Of a stretch of 52,854 nucleotides of DNA, positions 7,639 through 21,722 are shown one piece after another. The DNA is taken from NCBI GenBank assembly GCA_007127235.1, contig SKZT01000192.1:1-52854 (forward strand). The letters are read 5' to 3'. Source of the DNA: Desulfobacteraceae bacterium (GTDB lineage: Bacteria > Desulfobacterota > Desulfobacteria > Desulfobacterales > SKZT01). The translations under genes were made by a program, and so were the position numbers. The notes under the pieces were generated by a model. That model had not been told where the DNA came from. It was given only the letters and a program-made list of their open reading frames with translations, and made no database searches. The stretch's first letter is position 1. Every line of letters starts with the position of its first letter.

Positions 7639-10374
7639 TTACCTTTTTACGTTCTCACCCTTTCCCATTATCGGCAAGGTAAATGAAAAGGCCGTGCCTT
7701 TGCCGGGCTCACTTTCCACCCAGATTTTTCCATTGTGGTAGTCGATAATTCGTTTGGTGATGGTAAGTCCAAGTCCGCTTCCGGTGGGTTTTCCCCGGGA
7801 AGTGTCCTTGACTTGCCGGAATTTATCAAAAATAATTTTTTGATTTTCTTTGCTGATACCTATGCCATTATCGATGACATCCACTTGCAGGTAATTGTTT
7901 TTTATCCATAAATTGATGGTTATAAGACCTCCATGGGGTTCACAAAATTTGACGGCATTTGAAATAAGGTTGACCATGACCTGGAAAAGTCTGTCCCGAT
8001 CCCCAAGTGCTGCCGGAACTTTTTGCGGGAGGTTCAACTGGGACCTTATTCCTTTTTCTTTTAGCAGTTGGCTTAAAGCGGTAAGCGCATCGTTGATCAC
8101 CTTTTTAATATTTATAGGTGTGACCTGCCATTCCATTCTGCCGGATTCGATTTTTTGAAGATCCAGCACTTTTGAAATAAGGCGGGTCAAGCGTTCCGTT
8201 TCGTTAATGATGATCTGGGTAAATTGCTTTTTCTGACTTTTGCCAATGTTGGGATTATCATGAAGTATTTCGGCCAGTGCACGAACGGAGGTCAAAGGCG
8301 TGCGCAATTCATGCGTAACAGTGGAGATAAAGTCATCCTTGAGTTTATCCAGTTCTTTAAGTCTTTCATTGGCGGCCTGAAGTTCCAGCGAGGTTTTTTC
8401 GAGTTCACGGCTGTATTCGATAACCTGCCGTGTTTCGTCGAGAATATTCATGACCTCTTCGATGCCTAAAGATTCTTCTTTGACCACCGAGGCCACCATG
8501 ACACGGGCCGATGCTGACCCGATGGCTCCAGCCAAGAGTTTTTCAGCGTGATTGACCAAGCCCGCATCCGAGGTCAGTGATTTGTTCCAATCAATTTGAT
8601 GCCTGTTCATATATTCGGAAAGGCCTTCATCGGCTCTTTGCTTTCCTAAAAACCTGCTCAAAAGCGACCGTAAATCAGGAACCGATGCAGTTCCCCGCCA
8701 GAAAAAAGATTCGCCCGGACCTCTGGAATATTTGAACACATCGACAAAAAGCGCTGCCTGTGTGGCTTCAATGGGAGATGGCCGGGTAAAGACAGATACG
8801 CCGACATATGCGCCGATGTTGACCAGCATACTCCAAAAAACCGCGTGGGTGATACTGTTGAATCCTTCCAGACCGAAAAGTTGAAAGGGTTTTAAAAGAG
8901 CAATACCAAAGGGGCCTTCCAAAACAAAATTCTGGTGAATAAATCCGGCCTGAACCAGGGACGGAAGAAAAAGCGTATAGATCCAAACTGCAAAGCCGCC
9001 TATTAAGCCGCAGAGAGCGCCCATCCGATTGCCGTCTTTCCAGAAAATTCCCCCGATTATGGCCGGTGCAAATTGTGCCACAGCGGCAAACGAAACCAGG
9101 CCGATAGAAACAAGTGGATAAAATTCACCGATAAATCGGAAATAAGTATACCCTAACAAAAGGGTGAGAGCGATTCCGGCCCGACGGATTGTCAGCAAAA
9201 AATGGCTCAAATCACTTCTCTGAGCAAACCGAGTGAGAGGCATCCACAAAAGTACCGGCATGACCAGATCGTTGCAGATCATGGTGGAAAGAGCGATGGT
9301 TTCCACAATAACCATGCTTGTGGCAGCAGACATGCCGCCAATATAAACAAAAAGGGCGAGACCCTCCTGGTTTTCAATCATGGGAAGGGTTAACACAAAG
9401 GTATCGGCATCCACGCTTCCATCCGGAAAGTGCAGCAACCCTGCAAATGCCGCCGGCAACACAAAAATGTTGATGGCCAGAAGATATAGCGGAAAAAGCC
9501 ACATGGCCTTATTGATATGTTCTTCGTTGACATTTTCCACTACCCCGATTTGAAATTGTCTCGGCAAACAAATAATGGCCATCATGGAAAGAAATATGCT
9601 GACACCCCAATCTGCAGAGGTACCGTTTTCCATCCCAACTGTGAAAAGCTCGTGCAACTCAGGGTTTTCCCGGGCTTTACTGATAATGTCTCCGAACCCA
9701 TTGTAAATGAAATAGGTAATAAAAATGCCGACTGTTAAAAATGCCACCAGCTTGACAATTGATTCAAATGCAATGGCCGCCACCAGGCCTTCATGACGTT
9801 CGGTGGCTTCCAGGTGACGAGTGCCGAACAGAATGGCGAAAAGGGCCAAAAGCACTGCCACATGAAAAGTGGTGTCTTTGAGCACCGGTATTTGATCGAA
9901 ATGAACCGAGGGCATGACAATATCAGGGTAATTCTGAATAATCTGGAAGCTGATAGAGATGGCTTTGAGTTGAAGTGAAATGTAGGGAATTACACCCAGG
10001 ACAGCGATAATTGTCACCACCCCGGCCAATGATGCGCTTTTTCCGTACCGTGAGGCGATAAAGTCTGCAATGGATGTAATATGATGAATTTTACTGATAC
10101 GAATGATTTTTTTGAGCACCACCCAACCCAGGGCGGCCATGAGTGTAGGCCCGAGATATATGCTTAAAAAGCTGGGCCCCGTATGAACCGCCCTTCCCAC
10201 ACTGCCGTAAAATGTCCATGCCGTGCAATATACGGCAAGCGAGAGAGCATAGATATAAGGATTGCTGATAATGCTTCTGCCGATATCCGCCCTTCGGTCC
10301 CCATAGTAGGCAATGGCGAACAGCAACCCCATGTATCCGAACGAGAAAAAGAAAATGATCCCTGTTTCTAACAT
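7639..10374 (-). CDS. Sodium:solute symporter (SLC5/SSS) domain fused to a histidine kinase (CbrA/CrbS-like sensor without receiver domain)
   Basis: 911 aa. The N-terminal ~520 aa are polytopic membrane SSS-like. A soluble linker and coiled coil follow. Then come an intact H-box (FISTVTHELRTPLTS), N-box (NLISNAVKF), G1 (DNGIGI) and G2 (GSGLGL). Confidence 0.85.
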   Translation of the reverse strand: MLETGIIFFFSFGYMGLLFAIAYYGDRRADIGRSIISNPYIYALSLAVYCTAWTFYGSVGRAVHTGPSFLSIYLGPTLMAALGWVVLKKIIRISKIHHITSIADFIASRYGKSASLAGVVTIIAVLGVIPYISLQLKAISISFQIIQNYPDIVMPSVHFDQIPVLKDTTFHVAVLLALFAILFGTRHLEATERHEGLVAAIAFESIVKLVAFLTVGIFITYFIYNGFGDIISKARENPELHELFTVGMENGTSADWGVSIFLSMMAIICLPRQFQIGVVENVNEEHINKAMWLFPLYLLAINIFVLPAAFAGLLHFPDGSVDADTFVLTLPMIENQEGLALFVYIGGMSAATSMVIVETIALSTMICNDLVMPVLLWMPLTRFAQRSDLSHFLLTIRRAGIALTLLLGYTYFRFIGEFYPLVSIGLVSFAAVAQFAPAIIGGIFWKDGNRMGALCGLIGGFAVWIYTLFLPSLVQAGFIHQNFVLEGPFGIALLKPFQLFGLEGFNSITHAVFWSMLVNIGAYVGVSVFTRPSPIEATQAALFVDVFKYSRGPGESFFWRGTASVPDLRSLLSRFLGKQRADEGLSEYMNRHQIDWNKSLTSDAGLVNHAEKLLAGAIGSASARVMVASVVKEESLGIEEVMNILDETRQVIEYSRELEKTSLELQAANERLKELDKLKDDFISTVTHELRTPLTSVRALAEILHDNPNIGKSQKKQFTQIIINETERLTRLISKVLDLQKIESGRMEWQVTPINIKKVINDALTALSQLLKEKGIRSQLNLPQKVPAALGDRDRLFQVMVNLISNAVKFCEPHGGLITINLWIKNNYLQVDVIDNGIGISKENQKIIFDKFRQVKDTSRGKPTGSGLGLTITKRIIDYHNGKIWVESEPGKGTAFSFTLPIMGKGENVKR

Positions 10375-10375
10375 T

Positions 10376-10675
10376 TTATTCCCCGTTTCGGTGAAGACTG
10401 ATTTTCGGTTTCGGTGAAGACTGATTATCGGTTTGTTGTTTTGAAGGCTTTGGTTTTTTGTCTCTGGGAAGGTATTTTTTGGGATGTATACTGGTGATCA
10501 AAATTAATGAAATGATAATAACGCCCCAGACAAAAAACAAATAGATGTACAGAAGGGGAATGCCCCAGATAAATATTTTATAATTGAATAACGAGAGGAT
10601 GGGAAAGTTAAATACCAGGCAGCCCAGCAAGAAAATACTGAAAATCCGTTTGCTTTTAATACTTTCAGGGGTCAT
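10376..10675 (-). CDS. Small two-TM membrane protein, DUF3311-like putative SSS accessory subunit with a Lys/Pro-rich tail
   Basis: 99 aa. The pattern FNFPILS...GIPLLYIYLFFVW resembles the small DUF3311 proteins encoded just upstream of SSS transporters. The stop lies 1 nt before the kinase ATG, and the start overlaps the SNase gene by 11 nt. Confidence 0.6.
   Translation of the reverse strand: MTPESIKSKRIFSIFLLGCLVFNFPILSLFNYKIFIWGIPLLYIYLFFVWGVIIISLILITSIHPKKYLPRDKKPKPSKQQTDNQSSPKPKISLHRNGE
10385..10426. repeat. 23-nt-period tandem duplication (GTTTCGGTGAAGACTGATT twice, at 10385-10403 and 10408-10426)
   Basis: Read directly. It lies in the last ~16 codons of the DUF3311-like ORF, 10-50 nt upstream of the kinase start. 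The period is not a multiple of 3, so the two copies are read in different frames. Confidence 0.8.
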
Positions 10676-11345
10676 TGAGGTCTCCTAAACTCAGGCATCG
10701 CCTGCACGGTGCATAACCCTGCCAAAAAGCATCCCAGGCACTTGTGAGCAGGATTTCGTTTTTTGGGTGGGTTTTTTTCCCCCAGGAACAATCCGGTGTA
10801 TGAAAACGTTTTGAATTCCTGTTTCCAATATACCATTCCGATTTTTCACGCAGATTTTTCCATATTCCTCTTTTGTGTGCCATGGCCTGCTGTTGTGTCT
10901 TGATCAACAGGTCACGATATTTCAGGTTGGGCTTGCTGTGCAGATAAAAAGCGTATCCTTTTTCCAGGAGGGCTTGATTTACAAACACGCCGTTTTCTGT
11001 GAACACATAGGCCAGTTTTCGTCCAAAGCGATCTGTTTTTTCCCGGTCATATTCCAGTCTCAGCTTTGTGGACAATACCAGTTTTTCATTGTATTCTTTA
11101 GCGGCATATCCATAGGGTTCGGCAATATTGTTCTGATGATCGATTTCAGGAGAATCAATGGCGATATACCTGACAAAAGTGCCATCTTTCAAAACGATGG
11201 TATCGCCATCGGCAACCCATTTGACCCTGACCCACTCTTCCCCGAAAACATAATGGGGAAAAATAAACAGCCAGGCAAGAACCCAGAGTAAAAAGAAGCA
11301 TCTATTAAAAAGTTTTCCGGCCAGATTCCATTTAAGCAAGTTCAC
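10665..11345 (-). CDS. Membrane-anchored staphylococcal-nuclease (SNase/thermonuclease) homolog with a C-terminal Ada-type zinc-binding motif
   Basis: SNase core: VKWVADGDTIVLKDG...VRYIAIDSPE...PYGYAAKEYN...DRFGRKLAYVF...ALLEKGYA. An N-terminal hydrophobic anchor is present (FFLLWVLAWLFIF). The C-terminus FHTPDCSWG...SAWDAFWQGYAPCRRC resembles the Ada N-terminal Zn motif. The start is uncertain. The track gives 11489, which lies deep inside the upstream gene. GTG 11345 gives a 14-nt overlap, and ATG 11429 is also possible. Confidence 0.75.
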   Translation of the reverse strand: MNLLKWNLAGKLFNRCFFLLWVLAWLFIFPHYVFGEEWVRVKWVADGDTIVLKDGTFVRYIAIDSPEIDHQNNIAEPYGYAAKEYNEKLVLSTKLRLEYDREKTDRFGRKLAYVFTENGVFVNQALLEKGYAFYLHSKPNLKYRDLLIKTQQQAMAHKRGIWKNLREKSEWYIGNRNSKRFHTPDCSWGKKTHPKNEILLTSAWDAFWQGYAPCRRCLSLGDLNDP

Positions 11346-12447
11346 AGACTTTTGCAGCGCTTCTATCCAACATTGCCGGCAACCCCCCCCTCTCCGCGGG
11401 GACAAATCCAAGGGAATTTTTCCAGACATGTTCATCCTCCATGCAAAAATACAAGCAAACATCCGGTGCAATTTTTCTGATATGTTCAATAATCGCCTTA
11501 TAGAAACTTATTCTCAAAGGTTTGAAATATCGCATTTTGCCATCCAGGCCTCTGATGAATTCCCCATAGACAATTTTAGAGTGTGGAAATCGTTCTTGTA
11601 TGGTTGGTTTCAACGATGGCATAAAGCGAAAGGTCCCAAGGCTGATCCAGGGAATATTTTCGGGGTTGATATATGAAAATAGTTTTGTAATCACATCTTT
11701 GTAGTCGTTTTCACATCCGGGATAAAGCACCATGGGATCAAAATGAAAGGCTACGGGATATCCCCATTGCTGGCATTTTTGGGCGGCATATAGTCGGGAC
11801 TTGAGAGATGCGGTTCCGCGTTCCTGTGTGCGGATAATTTCTTGGGTGTTCAAAGACCAGGCCAATATGGTTTTTCGGTTGTGTTTCAGGCTTCGGAAGT
11901 TTTCAATGGCGGTGGTTTTTGTTTTAAGCTCCAACACGCAATGGTGCTGATTTGAAAAAATCGGAACCAGCAATTGGGACAAGTCGGTCCCATATTCCCA
12001 GATGAGACTGTCGGTGAATTCGCCTGTTCCGATTCTCAAAAGGATCTTTTGTTCAAGTGCCATGTGAAGTTCTTCAATCATGTCATGGTGATTCACAAAA
12101 AACTGTAATAGCGGTGGATGAAAATAAGACTGTAGTATGCAATAAGAGCAATCCATGGTGCAGAAAGTGCCCACATGAAGAATCTGATAATCACAGCAGA
12201 TATAGTTTTGAGTCCCGGGGCATTTTTTTAAAAATGCACCTTTGTTCCGGGTCAGATAAAGTGTTTTCTTCCCTGCTTTGACCGGGTCGGCATGGGTATT
12301 GATTTTTTCATAAAGGGTTTGGACATCATGGATTATCTCAGCGGAGCATTGGATCCGGTCACATATGGATTTTACCTGTGATAAATGCTGTACAGAGCTG
12401 TCGATATATATTTGTTCGATGGGCATGCTTTTATTGTGATCACCCAA
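11332..12447 (-). CDS. Spore photoproduct lyase-like radical SAM protein (SplB family)
   Basis: 371 aa with the radical SAM cluster motif CTMDCSYC in the context HVGTFCTMDCSYCILQSYF. Overall length and layout resemble SplB-family proteins. The start is TTG 12447 (8-nt overlap with the upstream gene) or ATG 12426. Confidence 0.7.
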   Translation of the reverse strand: MGDHNKSMPIEQIYIDSSVQHLSQVKSICDRIQCSAEIIHDVQTLYEKINTHADPVKAGKKTLYLTRNKGAFLKKCPGTQNYICCDYQILHVGTFCTMDCSYCILQSYFHPPLLQFFVNHHDMIEELHMALEQKILLRIGTGEFTDSLIWEYGTDLSQLLVPIFSNQHHCVLELKTKTTAIENFRSLKHNRKTILAWSLNTQEIIRTQERGTASLKSRLYAAQKCQQWGYPVAFHFDPMVLYPGCENDYKDVITKLFSYINPENIPWISLGTFRFMPSLKPTIQERFPHSKIVYGEFIRGLDGKMRYFKPLRISFYKAIIEHIRKIAPDVCLYFCMEDEHVWKNSLGFVPAERGGLPAMLDRSAAKVCELA

Positions 12448-14770
12448 TCCCTACAAATTCGAAATTGAGTTGGGCCTGGAATTTTTCAATTCGTTTAAAG
12501 ATTTCTTTGAGCATGGTCTGTTCGATGCGGGACAATTTTTTAGGCTTAATGTAATTGTCCGGCTTGGCGTTTTCATCTATAATGGCGGAAATTTGCCGTA
12601 CAAACCTCAACTGCATCATAAAGCTGTAGGCTTGATCCAAATCATTGTAGTCCTGCCACGAGAGCCGGTTTTTAACGTAGAGCTGAAAAAGACGGTCCTG
12701 GGTATTGGTTTCATCGATCTTGTTTTTTAAAGCATAAATTCGCGCATAGTCAACAATGGGCTGCATGGCCGATTTAATATCAAAGGCATCCTGGTGCTGA
12801 CCTTTGGATTCCACCACAAAATTTCGAAAAAAGCCGATGGGAGGTTTGAAGTAGAGTGCATTTTCAGTCAGGTTCCGGAAAAATCCCGCCCAGCCCTCCA
12901 GCGAATCGAATAAAAATTGATGCAGATCCGCAATGAGTGTTTTGTCTCCGTATCCGCATTTAAAATCAAAGAAAATACTGGATTTGAGCAATTGTTCAGG
13001 ACCTCCTGCATATATCCATGATGAAAAATAGTCTTTCCAGACCGACAGTGGCTGGCACCATTTCGGGTTTTGGGCCATATTGTCGCCTTCACAGAAAGAA
13101 TAACCAGCCTGATCCAGCCAACTGCATACTTTTTTACCCAGTTGCAGAAAATATTCCTGGGCCTCCTTTTCAGTTTCACCGGAGACATCCTGATATACGA
13201 TGGCATTGTCCTGATCCGTCTTTAAAGTCTGTTCTTTCCTTCCCTCACTGCCCATGATCATAAAAGCAAAACGCGCAGGAGGATCTCCCAGATCCTGGAT
13301 GGCAAAATCTATCAGTTTCTTCAAGATGGTATCTGAAATAGTGGTGACAAGGCGGGTTACATTTTTAGACTTGGCACCCCCATGAATAAGGGTTTTGATA
13401 ACACCGGGAAGCTGGCTGTGTTTATCGATAATGGATTCGAGAGATGCTGCTTCGGTAATTTCCCGCACAAGAAAGAAGGGTGACTGTTCCTGTGCATTTA
13501 AAAGATCACGATTGGTCACCACCCCGATGACTTTTTCATCCATATCCGTCACAGCCAGGTGTTTGACCCCCGTTTGGGTCATCTGTATCATGGCTTCAAA
13601 AATGAGGGCTTCCTTGGGAATTAAACTGATCGGGTTGGACACAATTTCGGCCACTGGTCGATGGATATCATATCCTGCGGATACGACTTTATTTCTCAGA
13701 TCGGCATCCGTAAGAACACCGGTAAAGTTGTTATTGGAGGACTTGATAAAAACGGAACTTGATTTGTGCCTCGCCATAATACTTGCGGCTTCCTGGATGG
13801 AAACCCCGGAATCACAGTAGACTAGATCCCGGTTATAAACCGTCTCCACCGGCTGGTTGAAAAACTGCTGTTCTTCATGCCCCTGATAAAGGGACTTTGA
13901 CACAATGGCGGCATAGGATCTGTCAAGCATTCGTTTTCCGAAAGTATCCGTGAAATATTCGGAAAAAACCTCATACTCTCTGCAAAGAGCCAAGAACTCT
14001 TTTTTGGGCAAAATATAAAAATAACAATCTTCGGTGCACTTTAGTGTGCGTACGGCAAGGGCATCATTTACCAGAAGCGTGATACCCCCAAAATGCTCCC
14101 CTTCCCCCAAAAGCCCCAGCAGCCTTTTCTGATCGCCTTCCTCATAGTAACGTTCGGCAGCCCCCCTTTGGATGATGTAAAGGTAATCAAGCTTTGTCTG
14201 TCCCTGAACACACATGATTGAGCCCTTGGGGTAGTGAACGATAGAAAGTTTGCCGGCCACCTTTTCGATTTCATCATCAGGAAGAAAAGAAAACGGAACA
14301 ACACTTACAAGAAACTGAAAAGACTGCTCTATGGCCAGTGTGGAAACGTAAGATTCATCAAGCATTCTTTGGCTGTAAATATCCACAAAATATTCTTTGA
14401 TGAATTCATGGCGATTGCACATCTCAAAAAAAGGTTTCTCAGGCATAACATAATAAGCGGCATCTTTTTCTACAGCCACGGTCCTGAAAGAAATGCCCGA
14501 GTTCATCAACATGGAGACTGCTCCGCACAAATCCCCCCGCTGAAGAAAAACGGTAAACGTTTTTTTTCCCCTGATTCCATGGTAAGCTTCAATGGACCCG
14601 CTGTTGACAATAATTAAATGATTGACTTTTGTTTTTCCCTGAGAATAAAGCACCGTGCCTTTAATCTTTTTTTCAATCCAAACCCTTCTGGCGTAATTTT
14701 TCAACTCCTCTTTGGGAAGCTCCGAGAAGGGGGGTATGGTAGATAAAAATTCAAAAGCCTGATCACTCAT
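12440..14770 (-). CDS. Signal-transduction protein: 2x cyclic-nucleotide-binding domains + CBS pair + DUF294 GlnD-like nucleotidyltransferase + DUF294_C
   Basis: 776 aa with two CAP-effector-like domains (LYSQGKT...IIVNSGSIE; CVQGQTKLDYLYIIQRGAAE). The CBS pair is around SSVFI...GVLTDADLRNKV and HLAVTD...IGVVTNRDLL. An NTase core follows (MGSEGRKEQTLKTDQDNAIVY), then a helical C-terminal domain. Confidence 0.8.
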   Translation of the reverse strand: MSDQAFEFLSTIPPFSELPKEELKNYARRVWIEKKIKGTVLYSQGKTKVNHLIIVNSGSIEAYHGIRGKKTFTVFLQRGDLCGAVSMLMNSGISFRTVAVEKDAAYYVMPEKPFFEMCNRHEFIKEYFVDIYSQRMLDESYVSTLAIEQSFQFLVSVVPFSFLPDDEIEKVAGKLSIVHYPKGSIMCVQGQTKLDYLYIIQRGAAERYYEEGDQKRLLGLLGEGEHFGGITLLVNDALAVRTLKCTEDCYFYILPKKEFLALCREYEVFSEYFTDTFGKRMLDRSYAAIVSKSLYQGHEEQQFFNQPVETVYNRDLVYCDSGVSIQEAASIMARHKSSSVFIKSSNNNFTGVLTDADLRNKVVSAGYDIHRPVAEIVSNPISLIPKEALIFEAMIQMTQTGVKHLAVTDMDEKVIGVVTNRDLLNAQEQSPFFLVREITEAASLESIIDKHSQLPGVIKTLIHGGAKSKNVTRLVTTISDTILKKLIDFAIQDLGDPPARFAFMIMGSEGRKEQTLKTDQDNAIVYQDVSGETEKEAQEYFLQLGKKVCSWLDQAGYSFCEGDNMAQNPKWCQPLSVWKDYFSSWIYAGGPEQLLKSSIFFDFKCGYGDKTLIADLHQFLFDSLEGWAGFFRNLTENALYFKPPIGFFRNFVVESKGQHQDAFDIKSAMQPIVDYARIYALKNKIDETNTQDRLFQLYVKNRLSWQDYNDLDQAYSFMMQLRFVRQISAIIDENAKPDNYIKPKKLSRIEQTMLKEIFKRIEKFQAQLNFEFVGIG

Positions 14771-14799: not shown

Positions 14800-16962
14800 C
14801 TAATATTTCAACCTGGCATACATGGTCTTTTTTGAGGCCTGACGGGCTTCTTTCATGGTATGGATACCCTGTTGGGCCAACAGAGGGATAAATTTCAAAA
14901 AAACTTCCGCCGTAGCAAGCGTGTCACCCAAAGCGGTGTGTCTTCCCACTATACTGATACCCAGCCGGTTAGCAATCGATTCCAGGCTTTGATCTTCCTG
15001 GGCAGGGTTTACCACGGCTGCCAGCAGCAGCGTATCGAGGACGGGGTTTATAAATTTGATGTTGGTTTGTTTTTCCTTCAACTCCAGCATTCGCATATCA
15101 AAGGCGGCATTATGGGCTACAAGTACCGTATCTTCGGCAAACATGTGGAACAAAGGAAGAACCTGGTCGATGGTCGGCTGTCCTTCAAGCATTTCCGGTT
15201 GTATCCCGTGAATTTTAATAGATTCTATAGGTACATGACGTTTGGGATCAATGAGTTGATCAAAAATTTCATCATGAAGAATGCGCCCATTGACGATCCG
15301 AACAGCGCCGATAGCAATAATTTCGTCGTTTCCTCTCGTATCCAGACCGGTGGTTTCCGTATCGAAAACAGTATATGTAAGAGACAGCAGCGAAAGGTCA
15401 TCCAGTTCCGGATTCTGTCCCGGTTGATTGAACAGGTCAAAATCGTAGAACTCGGGACGACTATCCGGAACGATGGTCATGGTACGGATATTATCGGACT
15501 CTACCGCTTCGACGGCAGGGAGACAAAAGCGCAGATAGGACTGATTTTTCACGTCCCGGCAGGAATAAGACCAGATTTCCGCCTCATGGTGCCCGACAAC
15601 TTCCTTGAGCGTGAGAGGAATACCTTCATCTTCGATCATCAACGGCTGTTCATCCCATTTTTTAAGTGTTTCCATCTTGATAGAGCCGCCTTCCCATAAA
15701 AGATCAATATTGACGAATCTTCCTTTCCTGCTCAAAGTACAAGCAAAATTTTTCCCGTCAAACTGTTTTTTAATTTGATTCAGAATATAAAGGATAGAGG
15801 TAATAATGGAGTAGCTGTCCACCTTAACCCATTCATCAGAACCGTTGGTTTCCGTTGACAGTTGAATTCCAAGTGCCTTATCGGCTCTTTTTGCAATGGT
15901 TTCCACCAGATCCTCAGCAGGCATTTTAACGAGAGGCCACTCGGTTTTAACATGGCTCGAATAATCGATGGCGGCTTTGTCCAAAAGATAGCCCAGTGCG
16001 AGAGCTTCTTTATGGATAATTTCGTTGAATTTTTTCTGCTGCTCTTCATCCATGTGAGGATATTCCAGGATGGCTTCGATTGCAGCCCGGATACTGGCCA
16101 CAGAAGCCCTGATACCCCTGGAAAGGTTTTTCAGTAAAAAATCAACCCGGCTGTCCACCTGAATTTGCTGAGTAATATCATAAAAAATGGTGATAAAACC
16201 GGTCAGTTGCCGCTGCTGATTTAAAATCGGGACCGTTTCCACCCTGAGCAGGTTGCCTTCTTTACCTACAATGACAAAGTAAGCGGCGATGTTGAGTTCT
16301 TCACGCCTCAATTTTTCGGCAATTTCATCGAGGGCGTGAACAATCACGTTTTTATCAATGACTCCAAATATCGAGCGCCCAAGCCCGATAAACCTCCCGG
16401 TTTTATTCAATGGGGAATCATTTTCCGTCTGACCTTCCAGAAACTCCCTTGCACGCTTATTATAAAAAAGTATTCGACCTTCCGCATTGCATATGAGAAT
16501 CCCCTCGGGAAGTTCCGCCATAAAAGCCGCCAGCAGGTTTTTTTCCTCTTCGAGATCTGCTTTGGCGATCTGGATTTTTTGTTCCACGTTTGCCCGCAAA
16601 TCTTCCTGCCGGTCTGCTCCCCGGTTAATCGCTTTGGCCAGACGTCCGATCTCTTTGCTTCCTTCCACTTTGATTCGGTGGGAAGGATTCACGGAATTGA
16701 TTATGGTAACTTCTTCAATAAGCTTATTGATGGGAATGATGTAGTTGTTGAAAATGGCGTCGAGAATAAACCCGAAACCGGCGAGAATAACAAAAACAAC
16801 ACCGAAAATATATATGAAACGCTCCCTGGCTATTCGCAGAAGCATTTCGGCTTCAGAAGGCGAAAGCTGCTGCCATAAAAAGAACCCGAGGCTTACCACC
16901 AAAGCAAGTGCGATGGTGAAAGAGACTGCAACGAACCACCAGTATTTGTTGTTGGGATTCAC
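14800..16962 (-). CDS. Membrane sensor (2 TM-HAMP-PAS-degenerate histidine-kinase-like module) fused to a C-terminal DEDDh (DnaQ/epsilon-like) 3'-5' exonuclease
   Basis: 720 aa. Exo motifs: Exo I FDTETTGLD, Exo II LVAHNAAFDMRML, Exo III HTALGDTLATAEVF. Upstream is a PAS-like segment (LPEGILICNAEGRILFYNKRAREFL). A DHp-like helix reads LSRGIRASVASIRAAIE and has no phospho-acceptor His. The ATPase-like fold lacks clear N/G boxes. GTG start with a GGGAG Shine-Dalgarno. Confidence 0.8.
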   Translation of the reverse strand: MNPNNKYWWFVAVSFTIALALVVSLGFFLWQQLSPSEAEMLLRIARERFIYIFGVVFVILAGFGFILDAIFNNYIIPINKLIEEVTIINSVNPSHRIKVEGSKEIGRLAKAINRGADRQEDLRANVEQKIQIAKADLEEEKNLLAAFMAELPEGILICNAEGRILFYNKRAREFLEGQTENDSPLNKTGRFIGLGRSIFGVIDKNVIVHALDEIAEKLRREELNIAAYFVIVGKEGNLLRVETVPILNQQRQLTGFITIFYDITQQIQVDSRVDFLLKNLSRGIRASVASIRAAIEAILEYPHMDEEQQKKFNEIIHKEALALGYLLDKAAIDYSSHVKTEWPLVKMPAEDLVETIAKRADKALGIQLSTETNGSDEWVKVDSYSIITSILYILNQIKKQFDGKNFACTLSRKGRFVNIDLLWEGGSIKMETLKKWDEQPLMIEDEGIPLTLKEVVGHHEAEIWSYSCRDVKNQSYLRFCLPAVEAVESDNIRTMTIVPDSRPEFYDFDLFNQPGQNPELDDLSLLSLTYTVFDTETTGLDTRGNDEIIAIGAVRIVNGRILHDEIFDQLIDPKRHVPIESIKIHGIQPEMLEGQPTIDQVLPLFHMFAEDTVLVAHNAAFDMRMLELKEKQTNIKFINPVLDTLLLAAVVNPAQEDQSLESIANRLGISIVGRHTALGDTLATAEVFLKFIPLLAQQGIHTMKEARQASKKTMYARLKY

Positions 16963-17090
16963 TATCTCCCTTTTCGATACTTACTTGGCTGTATGATGAA
17001 CTGGTTTGCGATATAGTACCTGAACCAAAAGCCCTTTATTTCCTCTCCCGGCGGGGGAGTGTCAGGGTGCGGGGTAATAATATCAGAACC

Positions 17091-17324
17091 TCATTGCAGC
17101 GAACTCCAAGGAATAACGATCATTTCAATAAAGACATATGCTAAAAAACTAATCGCACCTAATGCTGCCAAATAAATTAGGAAAGTATTCCATTTGTGCG
17201 TATTTTTTTCATTCTCATAATAATAAACCGGATTTGCGCACTTTTCACACCAGTATCTTCTTCGGTCAATGGTGAAAGTATGTCCGCAATCACACTGAAT
17301 TTCCTTGGGAGGCAGTCTTTCCAT
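17091..17324 (-). CDS. Small zinc-ribbon protein with a C-terminal TM helix (hypothetical)
   Basis: 77 aa with a CxC...CxxC motif (CDCGHTF...CEKC) followed by a hydrophobic helix (FLIYLAALGAISFLAYVFI). Confidence 0.5.
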   Translation of the reverse strand: MERLPPKEIQCDCGHTFTIDRRRYWCEKCANPVYYYENEKNTHKWNTFLIYLAALGAISFLAYVFIEMIVIPWSSLQ

Positions 17325-17411
17325 GGTAATGATTCCTTTGCATATTATTTATAACAAAATTATTTCATACGTAAATTTTCAGCTATTTTAACCAAAAAGT
17401 CAAGATTTGCA

Positions 17412-17450
17412 ATAAAAAAGGCCGAAAGATAATTTCATATCTTCCGGCCT
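17412..17450 (-). terminator. Rho-independent terminator of the acs-SSS-minipeptide transcription unit
   Basis: The minus strand reads AAGGCCGGAAGAT-ATGAAATT-ATCTTTCGGCCTTTTTTATT. This is an 11-bp stem with one G-U/mismatch, followed by a U6 tract, about 20 nt after the 28-aa ORF stop. Confidence 0.7.
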
Positions 17451-17469
17451 TAACTTAACAGGGTTCAGC

Positions 17470-17586: not shown

Positions 17587-19392
17587 TTAAGCTTCTTTTA
17601 TAACGATCATGGTTTCTTTTTCAGCCCTTTCGATCTGTACAGGACTTGTGGTGGACATTTCAGATTTGAAACTCCATCCCCACATCACGACAATACCAAT
17701 GATCCACCAGAAAATCTGCCATGACCACACCGGTGTGAACCCTCCGAATGTAAACCAGCTGTTGGCCATAATGCAGAGAGGTCCGATAGCAATAACATAC
17801 CAGCCGATGACGACATATTTCCAGACATTTCGCCATGCTTGGCCTGACTCGCTTGGTGCATCAATGTCGTCGAGGAAATTGCGCACCTCCTGCTGGCGCT
17901 TGATGGTTTCTTCGTCATCTTTTATTCCAAGCCCCCTGCAGAGGTAAGCCACAATGAAGGCAACGAACGTACCCCAGAAAGCACAGTGCATTGACAGCGG
18001 GTTGGGCCAGACACGATAGGTAAGGGTTACGGCAATCAGACCGGCCAGCGTGCCCAGAACAGCACCCATGGACGGGAATCTGAATCCCCAGAGAACTCCA
18101 GCCTGGAATAGGTACATCACAAATCCAAAAGCTGTGGCCAGGGCTCCAAGGATAACGAGAGCCGCCTGTGAAGTCAGACCAACGGCCAAAGCAGCTATTG
18201 TCAGTACGGTGGCAAGAATACGGTTCACCCAAATCTGCTCGGCATGGGTGGCTTCCTGATTTTTGATGTATCTCCAATAGACGTCACGGAGCAGGATAGA
18301 TCCGCCGGTTCCCAGATAAGGTGCCGCAGTTGAGTGAATAGCGGCAATAGCACCTACAAAAACTATTCCCAGCATAAACGGCGGCAGGTACAGTTTCATA
18401 AAGATGGGTACGACAGTTCTGTCCGTAAGCCCGCCGACTTCTGCTGCAGCAGACATAAATGCCGGATCATTTGCCACTTCCAATACCTTGGCGCCCATGC
18501 CCTGGAATGCGGAAAAGAAGAACAGAGCAAAACCAACCACAAAACATGACATGAACGTCTGCTGCCAGGCAAGGGGTGCCGGGGATTTAATGCCGAAGTT
18601 CCACATGGTAAAAGCCGGAGATGATTGAATACCCATGAGTGCAAACATATAGGTAAGAATCATTACCGCGGTCCATCCACCACCCAGACCCCAGTTGATT
18701 ACCATTGGTACTTCCAGATATCTGGTCTCGAGCAAAGCAACATTTGCGGAAAATGCCCCCCAACCTTCGAAAATCGGATGGGTAAGAACATAAATACCAA
18801 TAATGATAATACCGCCTACCAGCAAGATGAACTGGATAACGCCAACCCATGTACTTGCCTTGAGACCTCCGGTGCACACATAGAACCACACGATAAATGA
18901 AAGGAAAAGCACTCCAAAAGTAAATGGCACGCCGGCGATAACCTCGAACAACGCACCGGCAGCCATCAACTGGATTGCCGAGTAGAAAATGGAATACAAA
19001 ACAGCAGTGAAGACTGTCAACCAGCGGGTTGCTTCCGAGTTGTAATAATAGGCGTACATGTCACCGGGGGTAACAAACCCGTAACGTTTGCCCATCAACC
19101 AGTTTCTTTTAGCAAATAAAGCGCCGGTCATGGGAATGCAAAATACGTAAAAGGATGCAAATGCATAAGCCAGACCGTCGCGCCAGATCAATCCTGGATG
19201 CCCGATAAAGGTCCATCCGGAAAAAGATGCGGCTGTGGCCGCCATTAAAAACGCGATGAAAGGAATCGACCGCCCAGCGATAGAGTAGCCCGAGGAGGTC
19301 TTTTCAGTAAAATATCCTTTCAAGCCCCAGTAAAAGCAATAAATAATATAAATCGCCAAAAAAATATAAACCCAAGTGACTCCACCCAACAT
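17587..19392 (-). CDS. Sodium:solute symporter family transporter (probable monocarboxylate/acetate uptake by context)
   Basis: 601 aa, polytopic, with an SSS-like N-terminal half (YSIAGRSIP...SFSGWTFIGHPG). AGGAGG Shine-Dalgarno 7 nt upstream of the ATG. It sits immediately downstream of acs. It diverges from E. coli ActP, and I saw no DUF485/yjcH partner. Confidence 0.8.
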   Translation of the reverse strand: MLGGVTWVYIFLAIYIIYCFYWGLKGYFTEKTSSGYSIAGRSIPFIAFLMAATAASFSGWTFIGHPGLIWRDGLAYAFASFYVFCIPMTGALFAKRNWLMGKRYGFVTPGDMYAYYYNSEATRWLTVFTAVLYSIFYSAIQLMAAGALFEVIAGVPFTFGVLFLSFIVWFYVCTGGLKASTWVGVIQFILLVGGIIIIGIYVLTHPIFEGWGAFSANVALLETRYLEVPMVINWGLGGGWTAVMILTYMFALMGIQSSPAFTMWNFGIKSPAPLAWQQTFMSCFVVGFALFFFSAFQGMGAKVLEVANDPAFMSAAAEVGGLTDRTVVPIFMKLYLPPFMLGIVFVGAIAAIHSTAAPYLGTGGSILLRDVYWRYIKNQEATHAEQIWVNRILATVLTIAALAVGLTSQAALVILGALATAFGFVMYLFQAGVLWGFRFPSMGAVLGTLAGLIAVTLTYRVWPNPLSMHCAFWGTFVAFIVAYLCRGLGIKDDEETIKRQQEVRNFLDDIDAPSESGQAWRNVWKYVVIGWYVIAIGPLCIMANSWFTFGGFTPVWSWQIFWWIIGIVVMWGWSFKSEMSTTSPVQIERAEKETMIVIKEA

Positions 19393-19544: not shown

Positions 19545-21578
19545 TTAATTCTCTACCATTTTCTTGATGTCTTCCACCACTTCCGGGTTGGCAAGTGTCA
19601 TGGTATCGCCCACGTCGCTTTTATTGGAAATGGCGGCAAGCACGCGCCGCATGATTTTTCCTGAGCGTGTCTTGGGCATGTCGGGGACAATCCAGACTTT
19701 ACGTGCCTTGGCAATAGGACCGATTTCACGAACCAGTGCAGCGTTTACCTTTTGGGCGATTTCTTCGCTGGGTTCGTATCCGGGTTTTAGTGCCACATAA
19801 ATATCCGGCTCAACACCCTTGATATCGTGCCTGATCGGTACAACAGCCGCTTCGGCTACTTCTTCAACTACAAGGGCCGCAGATTCAAGTTCTTTTGTTC
19901 CCAGGCGATGACCGGAAACATTGATAACATCATCAATACGCCCCAGAATACGAACATAGCCGTCTTCGGCCATCATGGCCGCATCGCCTGTCAAGTAGGG
20001 CCAGTCTCTCCAGTCCTTGCTGCTGGAATCTTTACAGTATTTTTCAAAGTACTGGCGTACAAAACGGTCCCGGTCTCCCCAGATGGTCTGAAACATTCCC
20101 GGCCAAGGATTCCGGATACAGAGATTTCCCGCGATTCCTTTGCCAGGGGGCACTTCATTGCCCTTGTCATCGTAAATGATACAATGAATGCCGGGCATAC
20201 CGGGGCCTGCACTGCCGGGTTTCATGGGCTTGATGGCCGGGATGGTGCTGCACAGAAATCCACCGGTTTCTGTCTGCCACCACGTATCCACAATAACGGC
20301 TTTTCCCTTTCCCACCACTTCATAGTACCATTTCCAAACTTCGGGTTCGATGGGCTCTCCAACGGTGGTCATATGTTTGAATTCATAGTTATATTTGGCC
20401 GGTTCCTCCGGCCCGGTTTTTCTAAACGCCCGAATGGCTGTGGGTGCTGTGTGGAAAATGTTGACCCCCAGGTCCTGGGCGATCCGCCAGCACCTTCCGG
20501 CATCAGGATAGGTGGGGATACCTTCATAAATGACCGTCGATGCACAAATGGATAGCGGGCCATAGACGATATAGGAATGGCCGGTAATCCATCCGATATC
20601 CGCCATGCACCAGTAAACGTCTTCCGGATGAATATCTTGAACATACTTTGATGTTGCGGTGACACAGGCCAGGTACCCGCCGGTGTCGTGCTGGCATCCC
20701 TTGGGTTTTCCGGTGGTACCACTGGTGTACATGAGAAACAACGGTGCTTCGGCCGGCATTTTGACAGGCTCTACCCGTGCGCCATAATAATCTTTTATGA
20801 CTTCGTTGACAAAGAAGTCTCTTCCTTCAACCATGGGGGTCGATGCAGAATATTTGCCGGGATAACGCTGCCATATCAAAACTTTATCGACCTTTTGTCC
20901 GTGTTTTTCTGCAATCCCTACAGCTTCGTCTGCCTTTTGCTTGTGATTGAGAAGCTTGCCGCCCCGATAATAAGCATCCATGGTAATGAGAACGCTGCTG
21001 CCGGAGTCTGTGATTCTGTCTCCACAGGCACTTCCGCTAAACCCTCCAAATACCTGGGAGTGAATGATCCCCAGTCGGGCACAGGCCAGCATGGTGACGG
21101 GAAGATCAGGCAGCATGGGAAGATGAAGTGTGACACGATCGCCGGTTTTTAGTCCGCAAAAATCAAGAAGCACAGCCGCCATCTCGTTGACCCGCACCCA
21201 AAGCTCCCGGTAGGTCACATGCTCGATTTTTTCTTCCTCAAGTTCAGGGACAAAATGGATGGCTGTTTTATTGCTGTTTCCGGCCAGGTGACGGTCAATG
21301 CAGTTGTAGCTGACATTGAGCAATCCCCCCTTGAACCACTTGTAGCACGGAGCATCACTGGTATCCAAAATTTCATCCCAATACTTATACCAGTCCAAAA
21401 GATCCGCATACTCTTTGAAACAGTCCGGGAAATTGTCCATGCTGAAACGATCATAAATGCTTTCATCCGTCATATTCGCCTGTGCGATAAACTTGACGCT
21501 GGGCATATAATAGCCTTCTTCCCCCCAATGAACAGCTATTTGAGCCTCGGATGTTTCAGTATATTCTTTTTCCGCCAT
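19545..21578 (-). CDS. acs: Acetyl-CoA synthetase (AMP-forming)
   Basis: Motifs YTSGTTGKPKG, DTWWQTETGG, and the C-terminal PKTRSGKIMRR containing the conserved regulatory Lys. ATG 21578 (MAEKEY...) has a GGGAG Shine-Dalgarno. The track start 21593 is a TTG. Confidence 0.9.
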   Translation of the reverse strand: MAEKEYTETSEAQIAVHWGEEGYYMPSVKFIAQANMTDESIYDRFSMDNFPDCFKEYADLLDWYKYWDEILDTSDAPCYKWFKGGLLNVSYNCIDRHLAGNSNKTAIHFVPELEEEKIEHVTYRELWVRVNEMAAVLLDFCGLKTGDRVTLHLPMLPDLPVTMLACARLGIIHSQVFGGFSGSACGDRITDSGSSVLITMDAYYRGGKLLNHKQKADEAVGIAEKHGQKVDKVLIWQRYPGKYSASTPMVEGRDFFVNEVIKDYYGARVEPVKMPAEAPLFLMYTSGTTGKPKGCQHDTGGYLACVTATSKYVQDIHPEDVYWCMADIGWITGHSYIVYGPLSICASTVIYEGIPTYPDAGRCWRIAQDLGVNIFHTAPTAIRAFRKTGPEEPAKYNYEFKHMTTVGEPIEPEVWKWYYEVVGKGKAVIVDTWWQTETGGFLCSTIPAIKPMKPGSAGPGMPGIHCIIYDDKGNEVPPGKGIAGNLCIRNPWPGMFQTIWGDRDRFVRQYFEKYCKDSSSKDWRDWPYLTGDAAMMAEDGYVRILGRIDDVINVSGHRLGTKELESAALVVEEVAEAAVVPIRHDIKGVEPDIYVALKPGYEPSEEIAQKVNAALVREIGPIAKARKVWIVPDMPKTRSGKIMRRVLAAISNKSDVGDTMTLANPEVVEDIKKMVEN

Positions 21579-21722
21579 CGATTTCTCCCTCAACCAATCA
21601 TGTTTGCCCCTAAAAGAGAAAAAAACATATCATTTTTAAAAAACTAAATATTTGTTTGAAATCCGATTGCCTTCCTGACCCAAAATCCCCCCTTTCCATA
21701 AATAGTACGGAAACTTACAGAC

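Follow-up and report, generated by a model that had tools for sequence, protein, structure and literature searches.

A membrane-anchored protein that joins a predicted pseudo-histidine kinase to a DEDDh exonuclease, and the conserved kinase, receiver and DUF294 module to which its family belongs

The window, i.e. the whole stretch of 52,854 nucleotides analyzed here (contig SKZT01000192.1 of a Desulfobacteraceae bacterium), carries on its reverse strand a string of genes, among them an open reading frame for a 720-aa protein with a putative membrane sensor at the N-terminus and an exonuclease domain at the C-terminus (Table 1). The GTG start codon of this frame is preceded by a GGGAG Shine-Dalgarno sequence at a distance of ~5 nt, and the N-terminus of the protein aligns with homologues that start at ATG. 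The genes for acetyl-CoA synthetase (acs) and a symporter of the SSF type lie immediately upstream of the exonuclease unit, which begins with the 77-aa ORF and is divided from them by a terminator-like hairpin. Downstream, the 776-aa neighbor combines two cNMP-binding domains, two CBS domains, DUF294 and DUF294_C. The genuine histidine kinase farther along possesses a polytopic, transporter-like N-terminal domain of ~640 aa, for which Pfam returns nothing at E<=1 and which gives, when compared with an SSF transporter, two short collinear BLASTP matches only (E 3e-4 and 0.047); in a sequence search of the PDB, this kinase strongly matches the kinase chain 10ed_A. Rfam identifies no family in the whole window and thus offers no hint of a riboswitch or sRNA, and a scan for sigma-70 promoters did not rise above the shuffle expectation; only the hairpin stood out.

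Table 1. Genes, domains and other elements at the locus, in the direction of transcription
Feature	Position	Strand	Details
Acetyl-CoA synthetase (acs)	19545..21593	-	682 aa
Sodium:solute symporter family (SSF) transporter	17587..19392	-	601 aa, distantly ActP/MctP-like
Strong terminator-like hairpin	17418..17451	-	14-bp stem and T-run
Zn-ribbon and TM protein	17091..17324	-	77 aa, immediately upstream of exonuclease gene
Predicted pseudo-histidine-kinase sensor and DEDDh exonuclease, whole ORF	14800..16962	-	720 aa, single ORF, GTG start, stop included
TM helix 1	16876..16944	-	aa ~7-29; hydropathy; AF2 helix 3-31
TM helix 2	16750..16818	-	aa ~49-71; hydropathy and AF2
HAMP-like segment and long signalling helix	16516..16749	-	aa 72-149; AF2 helices 49-90 and 103-149
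PAS domain	16165..16515	-	aa 150-266
DHp-like helical hairpin	15958..16164	-	aa 267-335
CA-like alpha/beta domain	15505..15939	-	aa 342-486
Near-invariant linker motif RPEFYDFDLF	15430..15459	-	aa 502-511
DEDDh 3'-5' exonuclease domain	14863..15378	-	aa 529-700
Conserved C-terminal helix ending ARLKY	14803..14856	-	R717 and Y720 invariant
DUF294 nucleotidyltransferase	12440..14770	-	776 aa, 29 nt downstream of exonuclease gene
Spore-photoproduct-lyase (SPL)-like radical SAM protein	11332..12447	-	overlaps end of DUF294 gene by 8 nt
Staphylococcal-nuclease (SNase)-like protein	10665..11489	-	true start uncertain
Small membrane protein	10376..10675	-	99 aa, directly upstream of kinase gene
Genuine histidine kinase	7639..10374	-	911 aa, intact HisKA and HATPase_c

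The initial annotation of this frame, made from the sequence alone, described a DEDDh exonuclease fused to a transmembrane HAMP-PAS-pseudo-histidine-kinase sensor, and Pfam, AlphaFold and Foldseek agree that this order of domains is correct. The profile searches that it recommended return matches for RNase_T (aa 532-688, E 3.7e-37) and PAS (PAS_9/PAS_4, aa 150-266, E ~1e-5); HAMP and HisKA are matched weakly (E 0.058 and 0.089, respectively), and HATPase_c is not matched at all in the 720-aa protein. The region of the Tsr HAMP domain is also matched weakly in the PDB. HAMP is the least secure element of the architecture. Exactly two hydrophobic segments are found by hydropathy; only ~18 residues lie between the two helices, and therefore there is no real extracytoplasmic domain. 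The full-length AlphaFold model, of moderate reliability (pLDDT 74.8, pTM 0.39), places two TM helices, the HAMP/signalling helix, PAS, the DHp hairpin, the CA domain, a linker and the DEDDh fold in this sequence, and predicts the linker (aa 487-528) to be disordered apart from RPEFYDFDLF. Foldseek matches the N-terminal 400-480 residues to WalK, VicK, YF1, HK853 and ThkA. The motifs singled out by the annotation start at aa 280 (LSRGIRASVASIRAAIE), 533 (FDTETTG), 617 (HNAAFD) and 675 (HTALGD), and in the PAS domain the residues G193-L-G-R-S197 and H209-A210 are invariant across the family. The 720-aa protein is thus anchored in the inner membrane and consists of a kinase fold of the WalK/PhoR type, joined to a DEDDh exonuclease by a conserved linker.

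The kinase fold is degenerate at the positions on which phosphotransfer depends. The NCBIfam WalK model aligns with aa 50-435 at 80 bits (E 1e-22), as against a cut-off of 725 bits. In the PDB alignment to WalK (4u7n), the query NLSRGIRASVASIRAAIEAI falls on NVSHELRTPLTSLRSYIEAL, and therefore the phospho-acceptor His is replaced by R282 (codon 16117-16119; the nearby R285 is conserved). R282 is likewise the counterpart of the His in the kinase of the window, with whose core hhalign aligns the protein at a probability of 96%; between the DHp regions of the two, identity amounts to 27% over 63 aa only. The loss is real and family-wide: in 120 representatives, position 282 is occupied by E (59), Q (11), R (9), K (8), T (8), A (6), D (4) and H (4), among others, so that the His is absent from 116, and the overlooked His that, by the annotation's own account, would have refuted its claim did not come to light. 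The N, G1 and G2 boxes have degenerated as well. According to hhalign against the genuine kinase, the N-box Asn corresponds to Q396, among unconserved neighboring columns, G1 "DNGIGI" to "WEGGSI", with W423 (present in 112 of the 120 representatives) at the position of the Asp, and G2 "GSGLGL" to "DEGIPL". Because the His and all three boxes are missing, the kinase part is, as judged from its sequence, catalytically dead and should be incapable of autophosphorylation.

On the other hand, the exonuclease domain appears to be intact. Its catalytic residues are D534 and E536 in ExoI, D622 in ExoII, and H675 and D680 in ExoIII; all five are invariant in sets of 25 and of 34 aligned homologues, and the DEDDh signature is complete in 112 of 120 diverse representatives. 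The loss of acidic Exo residues from orthologues, which would have indicated a dead enzyme, is thus not observed, and given this conservation the nuclease is probably live. Across loci, it is 57-71% identical as against 23-49% for the sensor, and therefore the nuclease is the part under the strongest constraint. Together, the missing His and boxes and the conserved DEDDh residues lend good support to the earlier suggestion that the output of the protein would be nuclease activity rather than phosphotransfer. The same data bear on the converse idea, namely that the pseudo-kinase is the functional core, which heterodimerizes with or scaffolds the genuine kinase, and that the exonuclease is accessory or functionally degenerate. 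Pseudokinases that regulate kinases are documented (e.g. DivL for CckA, RocA for CovS), both proteins in question are membrane-anchored, and the window retains the genuine kinase even where the receiver is lacking. However, the retention of the DEDDh residues, the much higher identity of the exonuclease, the limited similarity of the DHp region to that of the partner kinase and the existence of variants that lack the CA domain and still carry the exonuclease all speak against this idea, which we consider quite unlikely.

In terms of fold, the C-terminus is closest to the exonucleases of PolC, DinG and the epsilon subunit (Foldseek, rmsd 1.6-2.3 A), and the exonuclease of T. maritima PolC (2p1j) is matched with 119 bits. 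These resemblances, and the SPL- and SNase-like genes in the gene string of the window, could be taken to indicate a paralogue of DnaQ or of the PolC exonuclease that serves in DNA repair or proofreading and is brought to the membrane under stress. We find this very improbable, as the domain scores 111.7 bits against the equivalog cut-off of 222.7 for dnaQ_proteo and stays far short of all cut-offs for PolC and DinG, it is accompanied by neither a polymerase nor a helicase, the neighbors shared across phyla are genes for signalling and carboxylate uptake, and SPL and SNase genes are confined to the Desulfobacterales loci.

The fusion is not a peculiarity of this genome. A search with the sensor part (E<=1e-30) gives no fewer than 373 clusters, at 50% identity, in Desulfobacterales, Burkholderiales, Alpha- and Gammaproteobacteria and Chloroflexota; a betaproteobacterial search alone yields 6,153 clusters at 90% identity. 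With thousands of full-length homologues, the association with the exonuclease is far beyond chance. A motif scan for the linker, in which RPxFYDFDLF was written by hand as a degenerate pattern, provided a set of loci of which 120 out of 120 are true members, from at least five phyla or classes. In Rhizobium and Ruegeria, shorter TM-HAMP-PAS-exonuclease variants occur in operons of the order DUF4212-SSF-DUF294-hypothetical-exonuclease, and in one protein (P0137) the same PAS and pseudo-kinase module is fused directly to DUF294, a case that may be an assembly artefact and is taken as supportive only. The names under which these proteins are deposited, "DNA polymerase III subunit epsilon" and "PAS domain-containing protein", are misleading or uninformative. 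Our literature search returned no published description of a pseudo-kinase/exonuclease fusion, and a search for DUF294 combined with an exonuclease was likewise empty.

Comparison of the loci reveals a module that recurs in several phyla and comprises a kinase with a small membrane protein, a receiver, a CBS-DUF294 protein (often with cNMP-binding domains), an SSF symporter with or without DUF4212, and often acs. In 74 of 75 loci, the gene directly upstream, in the same orientation, encodes a single-domain receiver. It can overlap the exonuclease gene by 4 nt in 30 of 54, and 59 of the 74 receivers carry the Asp motif. A kinase of the window type was found in 59 loci. When that of the window is compared over its 911 aa with a Hydrogenophaga kinase whose gene adjoins those of a receiver and an exonuclease, the two share 51% identity; in other phyla, too, the kinase gene is preceded by a small gene, just where the window has the gene for the 99-aa membrane protein. 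DUF294 was encountered in 72 of 120 related loci, as counted in 8-kb snippets that are not centered on the exonuclease gene; in 47 it follows downstream in the same orientation, in 17 it is convergent and in 8 it lies upstream. It was not found in 14 loci whose snippets extend 3.5 kb or more downstream, and it is not adjacent at some Desulfobacterales loci (L057, L088, L091). It neighbors the exonuclease gene in the operons of Paracoccus, Rhizobium and Ruegeria. In Paracoccus denitrificans PD1222, where the exonuclease protein is 39% identical to that of the window, the whole five-gene operon is present with overlaps of 4, 4, 11 and 4 nt. DUF4212/SSF symporter genes and acs occur at many loci. 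In the window, as in its 81%-identical relative, no receiver gene lies near the ORF; the place that other lineages reserve for it is taken by the gene for the 77-aa protein (some lineages have both). The interpretation offered initially, a signal-gated exonuclease, stands as far as the architecture is concerned, but the image of a lone ligand-gated enzyme gives way to that of a component of a module with kinase, receiver, DUF294, symporters and acs. As the exonuclease protein belongs to this conserved module, a vestige seems a less likely description of the dead kinase core than a part at which a phosphorylated receiver, or the kinase, docks or provides input.

A sequence search of the PDB returned nothing meaningful for the DUF294 enzyme, and the only confident matches of its predicted structure are to DrrA (TM 0.67) and GlnE (TM 0.60-0.69), i.e. 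its catalytic half, as modeled, resembles most closely the protein AMP-transferases. This result bears on the substrate. The initial annotation favored signalling oligonucleotides or nanoRNAs (pGpG, pApA, and other linear or cyclic species), which an autonomous, PAS/HAMP ligand-gated exonuclease would degrade and which the neighboring nucleotidyltransferase might produce. An intact DEDDh site with a sensor attached, a neighbor that belongs to the pol-beta-like nucleotidyltransferase superfamily and possesses cNMP-binding domains, and the ability of DEDDh enzymes of the oligoribonuclease (Orn) type to degrade dinucleotides would all suit such a function. However, the fold of the partner is that of GlnE and DrrA rather than of cGAS/CD-NTase or GGDEF-type synthases, the best 25 of 42 NCBIfam matches of the exonuclease are to PolC, DnaQ, DinG and generic DEDD families with no Orn-type family among them, and the fact that kinase and receiver genes are coupled to it in a conserved manner speaks against autonomy. 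We found no specific support for these substrates; the nanoRNA idea is not the best-supported one, and we regard the autonomous enzyme as rather unlikely.

A physiological context is suggested by separate genes in Pseudomonas. In P. alloputida, the operon PP_0353-PP_0354, which encodes an exonuclease and a cNMP/CBS-nucleotidyltransferase, depends most strongly on MxtR/ErdR (CrbS/R); deletion of either gene reduces growth on propionate, and deletion of the exonuclease also lowers growth on pyruvate, as does that of actP or yjcH (bioRxiv 10.64898/2026.09.07.749794). DUF4212/SSF symporters exhibit cofitness with a neighboring COG2905/RNase T gene, the wording being ambiguous as to which of the two is meant (Price et al., bioRxiv 10.1101/072470). 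The control of the soluble Pseudomonas pair by the carboxylate-responsive CrbS/R system is also pertinent to the superficially defence-like look of a nucleotidyltransferase, a nuclease and a membrane protein side by side, which might recall a CBASS-like anti-phage system with the nucleotidyltransferase as sensor and the nuclease as effector. The DEDDh models of PADLOC match the exonuclease domain and an NCBIfam CBS model ("DS11") is matched weakly, but the PADLOC matches (DEDDh/PDC-S48) are at the level of domains, while DUF294, SPL and the 77-aa protein are not matched, and across phyla the module accompanies housekeeping acs, symporter and two-component genes. A defence system is exceedingly improbable, and with domain-level PADLOC matches only, we have rejected this identity.

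We are inclined, on balance, to regard the 720-aa protein as the effector of a two-component-like module for the uptake and activation of short-chain carboxylates (of the acetate, propionate, pyruvate or lactate type), with the dead kinase as its input. In two-component signalling the usual order is from kinase to receiver and from there mostly to transcription. Here, the genuine kinase would sense the availability or flux of the carboxylate and phosphorylate the receiver, which would then dock on the vestigial DHp/CA core, so that information would run in reverse, as in DivL-DivK of Caulobacter. We infer this docking from gene coupling and from the likeness to DivL. The docked receiver and the PAS/HAMP input could together switch the attached exonuclease, and the latter might act on the same nucleotidylated substrate as the DUF294 enzyme; this substrate, a nucleotidylylated protein or the 3' end of an RNA, would tune the activity or expression of the symporter or of Acs. 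As neither the window nor its 81%-identical relative has a receiver gene, receiver docking is not the whole story there; in this sub-lineage a receiver from another locus, the co-operonic kinase itself or PAS alone may supply the input.

It is tempting to go further and to consider the DEDDh domain in vivo as an eraser of protein nucleotidylylation rather than a nucleic-acid exonuclease, with DUF294 writing on Acs or the carboxylate symporter and receiver docking gating the erasure. The phosphodiester in Tyr/Thr/Ser-O-NMP is chemically the same as the bond cut by a 3'-5' exonuclease that releases 5'-NMP. In the known systems, the mark is removed by a second NTase domain (GlnE), an HD domain (GlnD) or a PP2C-like phosphatase (SidD); to our knowledge, a DEDDh exonuclease is not among these erasers. 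A writer/eraser pair naively predicts opposite mutant phenotypes, and similar ones have been reported. We put this forward as a speculation with a small chance of being right; if true, it would reveal a new class of de-AMPylases, wired directly into a two-component pathway.

The family is very widespread, with hundreds of 50%-identity clusters and members in model organisms, Paracoccus denitrificans and Cupriavidus necator among them, and it appears to illustrate how a histidine-kinase scaffold without catalysis can be turned into the input of a hydrolytic enzyme, with a bona fide kinase/receiver pair as the apparent source of the signal. It bears on a question raised by the Pseudomonas papers of 2017 and 2026, namely the role of the exonuclease and the cNMP/CBS-nucleotidyltransferase in short-chain fatty-acid metabolism, and the fused, operon-organized versions offer a tractable system in which predictions such as receiver docking and a common nucleotidylated substrate can be tested.

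Among known systems, HisKA kinases of the WalK/VicK/PhoR type share the overall fold and the succession TM-HAMP-PAS-DHp-CA, and provide the best sequence and structure matches for aa 50-490, but they possess the His, the N-box Asn, the G1 Asp and the G2 glycines, and lack the additional C-terminal exonuclease. The exonuclease domain shares all three Exo motifs and the fold with DnaQ, PolC and DinG; it differs in having no polymerase or helicase attached, in the RPEFYDFDLF linker and the ARLKY C-terminus, and in its context of signalling and carboxylate genes, and whereas DnaQ epsilon is a protein of ~240 aa with a C-terminal alpha-binding tail, the present one has 720 aa with a membrane sensor at the N-terminus. 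The module recalls the GlnE, GlnD and DrrA-SidD systems in its DUF294 partner with the GlnE/DrrA fold, the regulatory CBS/cNMP domains and the hydrolase encoded alongside, which is where those systems also have their erasers.

The pairs PP_0353/PP_0354 and PA3232-PA3233 and Pflu5625 of Pseudomonas likewise bring together a DEDDh or RNase T-like protein and a cNMP-CBS-nucleotidyltransferase in connection with uptake of the acs/actP type, and that pathway also has a histidine kinase with a transporter domain upstream, as in the module described here; the exonucleases of Pseudomonas and Shewanella are likened to ours by shared context and domain descriptions. However, the SLC5-type kinase of Pseudomonas acts transcriptionally via the DNA-binding CrbR, whereas here the genes for a kinase and a single-domain receiver adjoin that for the exonuclease, whose own membrane-anchored HAMP-PAS-pseudo-kinase input suggests post-translational wiring.

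A close analogue of the input part is DivL of Caulobacter crescentus, which also combines the architecture of a histidine kinase with PAS and the lack of a phospho-acceptor His, and which possesses no kinase activity; the position of the His is occupied by Tyr in DivL, and by Glu, Arg, Gln, Lys and others in the exonuclease-fused family, for which inactivity is predicted from sequence. Through the docking interface for response regulators, the DHp/CA core of DivL senses DivK~P, i.e. it reads the phosphorylation of a single-domain receiver (PMC4211667), and in most lineages considered here a gene for such a receiver is translationally coupled to that of the exonuclease; the window's own locus has no receiver. 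However, DivL carries no enzymatic output domain and controls the kinase CckA, while in the exonuclease-fused family a nuclease is attached to the pseudo-kinase itself.

The sensor-exonuclease is encoded by a single open reading frame, preceded by the ribosome-binding site GGGAG about 5 nt before the start, and its homologues have ATG at the same starting residue. The motifs quoted in the initial annotation were located in the translation (LSRGIRASVASIRAAIE at aa 280, FDTETTG at 533, HNAAFD at 617 and HTALGD at 675), and the fusion of a sensor-kinase-like region with a DEDDh exonuclease, which it had noticed, is confirmed. Pfam recognizes RNase_T at aa 532-688 (E 3.7e-37) and PAS_9/PAS_4 at aa 150-266 (E about 1e-5), with marginal matches to HAMP (0.058) and HisKA (0.089), and the WalK kinase model of NCBIfam, whose cut-off is 725, covers aa 50-435 with a score of 80 bits (E 1e-22). 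The hydropathy profile contains two hydrophobic segments and no more. In the AlphaFold model (mean pLDDT 74.8), two TM helices joined by an 18-residue connector lead into a HAMP/signalling helix and a PAS domain (154-262), followed by the DHp helical hairpin (264-333), an alpha/beta domain equivalent to the ATPase-like CA domain of kinases (345-484), a disordered linker, the DEDDh fold (530-700) and a terminal helix. According to Foldseek, 400-480 residues of the sensor part superpose on full-length WalK, VicK, YF1 and ThkA, with HK853 also matched, and the C-terminus superposes on the exonucleases of PolC, DinG and epsilon with an rmsd of 1.6-2.3 A. Two family-specific motifs, one in the linker and one at the C-terminus (see the table), are candidate docking or autoinhibitory elements, and the invariant residues of the PAS domain lie in the region that in PAS domains usually accommodates a ligand or cofactor.

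The kinase-like core appears to be catalytically dead. In the alignment with WalK (4u7n), R282 takes the place of the phospho-acceptor His, and both BLASTP and hhalign comparisons with the genuine kinase encoded in the window again place R282 opposite that residue. Among 120 diverse representatives, this position is occupied by Glu in 59, Gln in 11, Arg in 9, Lys in 8, Thr in 8, Ala in 6, Asp in 4 and His in only 4. The missing N, G1 and G2 boxes are likewise borne out: Pfam finds no HATPase_c match in the protein, and the hhalign alignment (96% probability) pairs the N-box Asn with Q396, the G1 sequence 'DNGIGI' with 'WEGGSI' and the G2 sequence 'GSGLGL' with 'DEGIPL'. The adenine-binding Asp is replaced by W423, which is found in 112 of the 120 representatives; all five DEDDh residues are also intact in 112 of the 120. 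No His had been overlooked and the DEDDh residues are conserved in the homologues, so that neither objection foreseen by the initial annotation stands. As judged from these alignments, the kinase part lacks all the catalytic signatures, and the nuclease site is retained. A reading of the protein as a pure pseudokinase that modulates other kinases is disfavoured because the nuclease is its most conserved part: identity across loci is 57-71% in the exonuclease domain versus 23-49% in the sensor.

The family is large and unnamed. With the sensor part alone as the query, 373 representatives of 50%-identity clusters were retrieved at E<=1e-30, mostly of 700-730 aa, and a betaproteobacterial member retrieved 6,153 clusters at 90% identity. 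When species genomes were scanned at the DNA level with a degenerate pattern of RPxFYDFDLF, the near-invariant linker, at least 120 of them matched, and tblastn showed all 120 loci listed to be genuine members. The taxa listed among them are Burkholderiales/Rhodocyclales, Thiothrix, Competibacteraceae, Xanthobacter, Hyphomicrobiaceae, Chloroflexota, a Nocardioidaceae MAG and Desulfobacterales; Paracoccus denitrificans PD1222 and Cupriavidus necator are further hosts, with the gene on a chromid in both. Members go by no source names other than 'DNA polymerase III subunit epsilon', '3'-5' exonuclease', 'PAS domain-containing protein' and 'exonuclease domain-containing protein'. The role in proofreading or repair that database names imply is unlikely: the top exonuclease models among the NCBIfam matches listed (PolC, DnaQ, DinG and generic DEDD) all score far under their equivalog cut-offs, and the gene context is a poor fit.

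Features of the sensor-exonuclease locus (window coordinates unless a related locus is named)
Feature	Position	Strand	Remarks
Sensor-exonuclease ORF	14800..16962	-	720 aa, GTG start
PAS motif G-L-G-R-S	16381-16395 (aa 193-197)	-	invariant, as are H209-A210
Linker motif RPEFYDFDLF	15430-15459	-	near-invariant, family-specific; in disordered linker before exonuclease
C-terminal motif ARLKY	14803-14817	-	near-invariant, family-specific; R717 and Y720 invariant
Hairpin, terminator-like, strong	17418-17451	-	14-bp stem, then T-run; between symporter gene and 77-aa ORF
77-aa Zn-ribbon and TM protein gene	17091-17324		in the usual place of the receiver gene (16963-17586)
Spore-photoproduct-lyase (SPL)-like radical SAM gene	11332-12447	-	8-nt overlap with end of DUF294 gene
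Staphylococcal-nuclease (SNase)-like gene	10665-11489	-	SNase domain aa 106-212, E 2e-22; hydrophobic N-terminal stretch
Kinase unit	7639-10675	-	small membrane protein and kinase
DUF4388(PatA_N) and 2x cNMP-binding protein	24851-26640	-	adjoins small Ras/Arf-like GTPase gene
Short variant (related loci L125, L126)	L125 5380-7597; L126 5748-7708		479-562 aa; on Rhizobium and Ruegeria plasmids

On the minus strand of the window, the genes for a TetR regulator, Acs and an SSF symporter are followed by the hairpin, the 77-aa protein and the sensor-exonuclease, and then by the DUF294 gene (cNMPx2-CBSx2-DUF294-DUF294_C, after a gap of 29 nt), the SPL-like and SNase-like genes, a 99-aa membrane protein and a 911-aa histidine kinase. 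The hairpin and the promoter-like hexamers directly after it suggest that acs-SSF is transcribed separately from the sensor-exonuclease operon. The SPL-like gene occupies the same position in the Desulfobacterales relatives L088, L090, L099 and L123; in L088 its immediate upstream neighbour is the exonuclease gene, without an intervening DUF294. The SNase-like gene is flanked by the SPL-like gene on one side and the kinase unit on the other; in this place L123, a relative 81% identical to the window, has an 89-aa ORF only. A few kb from the sensor-exonuclease, the DUF4388/cNMP-binding and GTPase genes form a second cyclic-nucleotide-related signalling cluster, which in L123 also includes a PilZ protein.

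In 74 of 75 related loci, the gene directly upstream of the sensor-exonuclease gene, in the same orientation, encodes a receiver, and in 30 of 54 the two reading frames could overlap by 4 nt; 59 of the 74 receivers carry the phospho-acceptor Asp motif, and a genuine kinase gene was seen in 59 loci. The adjacent receiver gene is absent from the window and L123, and present in the Desulfobacterales loci L028, L044, L046, L057, L088, L090 and L091, of which L088 carries it together with the 77-aa gene. In Hydrogenophaga, a 925-aa kinase and a small membrane protein precede a 124-aa single-domain receiver gene that overlaps the exonuclease gene by 4 nt; DUF294 is convergent, and DUF4212 and SSF symporters flank the cluster. 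Paracoccus denitrificans combines DUF294, the small protein, kinase, receiver and exonuclease in a single operon whose successive genes overlap by 4, 4, 11 and 4 nt. The window kinase is 51% identical to that of Hydrogenophaga over the full length. Its polytopic N-terminal domain of about 640 aa is not recognized by Pfam even at E<=1; the first 490 residues of the kinase match 10ed_A (E 3e-69), a solved chain named 'histidine kinase', and two short, collinear, weak matches link the kinase to an SSF transporter. The small membrane protein (77-99 aa) that always precedes the genuine kinase is reminiscent of DUF4212 and YjcH, the small subunits of SSF transporters.

A DUF294 homologue was found in 72 of 120 loci, counted in non-centred 8-kb snippets: it lies downstream in the same orientation in 47, is convergent in 17 and lies upstream in 8. 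In Rhizobium and Ruegeria, the short variant closes a DUF4212-SSF-DUF294-hyp-exo operon that contains neither kinase nor receiver; the hypothetical protein (172-174 aa) has no Pfam match, and the Rhizobium variant comprises TM-HAMP-PAS, a short helical region and the exonuclease, without the CA domain. In one cluster representative, P0137 (811 aa), the same PAS/pseudo-kinase module, which shares 41% identity with aa 78-506 of the window protein, is fused straight to DUF294 and DUF294_C, without exonuclease or cNMP/CBS domains. Such a fusion connects the sensor module with the enzyme of the neighbouring gene in the manner of a Rosetta stone, and is supportive only, as a single representative may be an artefact of assembly or gene calling. 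Taken together, the loci show a cross-phylum linkage of the sensor-exonuclease to a transporter-like kinase, a coupled receiver, a GlnE/DrrA-like nucleotidyltransferase and carboxylate uptake genes. A defence system is not supported.

The DUF294 enzyme has no sequence match in the PDB. A structure model of its catalytic half (pLDDT 79.9, pTM 0.81) yielded only four confident structural matches, all to Legionella DrrA (TM score 0.67) or to the adenylylation and deadenylylation halves of E. coli GlnE (0.60-0.69); similarity to aminoglycoside nucleotidyltransferases was far weaker, and that to an RNA uridylyltransferase was at noise level. The predicted fold supports the long-standing suggestion, quoted in PMC5715377, that DUF294 proteins modify other proteins by nucleotidylylation. 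The interpretation offered by the initial annotation is partly supported: the His-less core and the conserved nuclease site stand, but an autonomous enzyme that degrades oligonucleotides or nanoRNA, although possible, is not favoured by the fold of the partner or by the relatives of the exonuclease.

We propose instead that the genuine kinase signals the availability of carboxylate and transfers phosphate to the receiver, which would dock on the dead DHp/CA core, by analogy to DivL, in which a His-less kinase core can sense a phosphorylated single-domain receiver (PMC4211667). The docked receiver and the PAS/HAMP region together could then gate the exonuclease, which may share one nucleotidylated substrate with the DUF294 enzyme and so tune symporter or Acs function. 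The weak point of the receiver step is that the receiver gene is missing in the window lineage.

The pseudo-histidine kinase with a DEDDh exonuclease is a novel combination of known kinds that defines a widespread, uncharacterized signalling module, and we found no description in the literature of a kinase-like sensor fused to a DEDDh exonuclease. A related system is the Pseudomonas pair of an exonuclease and a cNMP/CBS-nucleotidyltransferase (PP_0353/PP_0354; PA3232-3235 cluster; Pflu5625), which is under the SLC5-domain kinase system CrbS/CrbR (MxtR/ErdR) (PMC5715377; bioRxiv 10.64898/2026.09.07.749794). PP_0353-PP_0354 is the operon that shows the strongest MxtR/ErdR dependence; deletion of either gene lowers growth on propionate, and deletion of the exonuclease also lowers growth on pyruvate, like deletions of actP and yjcH, the function of the pair being stated as unknown by its authors (bioRxiv 10.64898/2026.09.07.749794). 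In the data of Price et al., DUF4212/SSF symporters are cofit with an adjoining COG2905/RNase T gene, which the authors speculated to be needed for symporter expression (bioRxiv 10.1101/072470). The sensor-exonuclease family offers a tractable route into the open question of CrbS/R-type carboxylate regulation. Judging from gene context and domain descriptions, the connection between kinase and exonuclease appears to be transcriptional, via CrbR, in the Pseudomonas pair, whereas in the sensor-exonuclease family the same connection appears to be post-translational.
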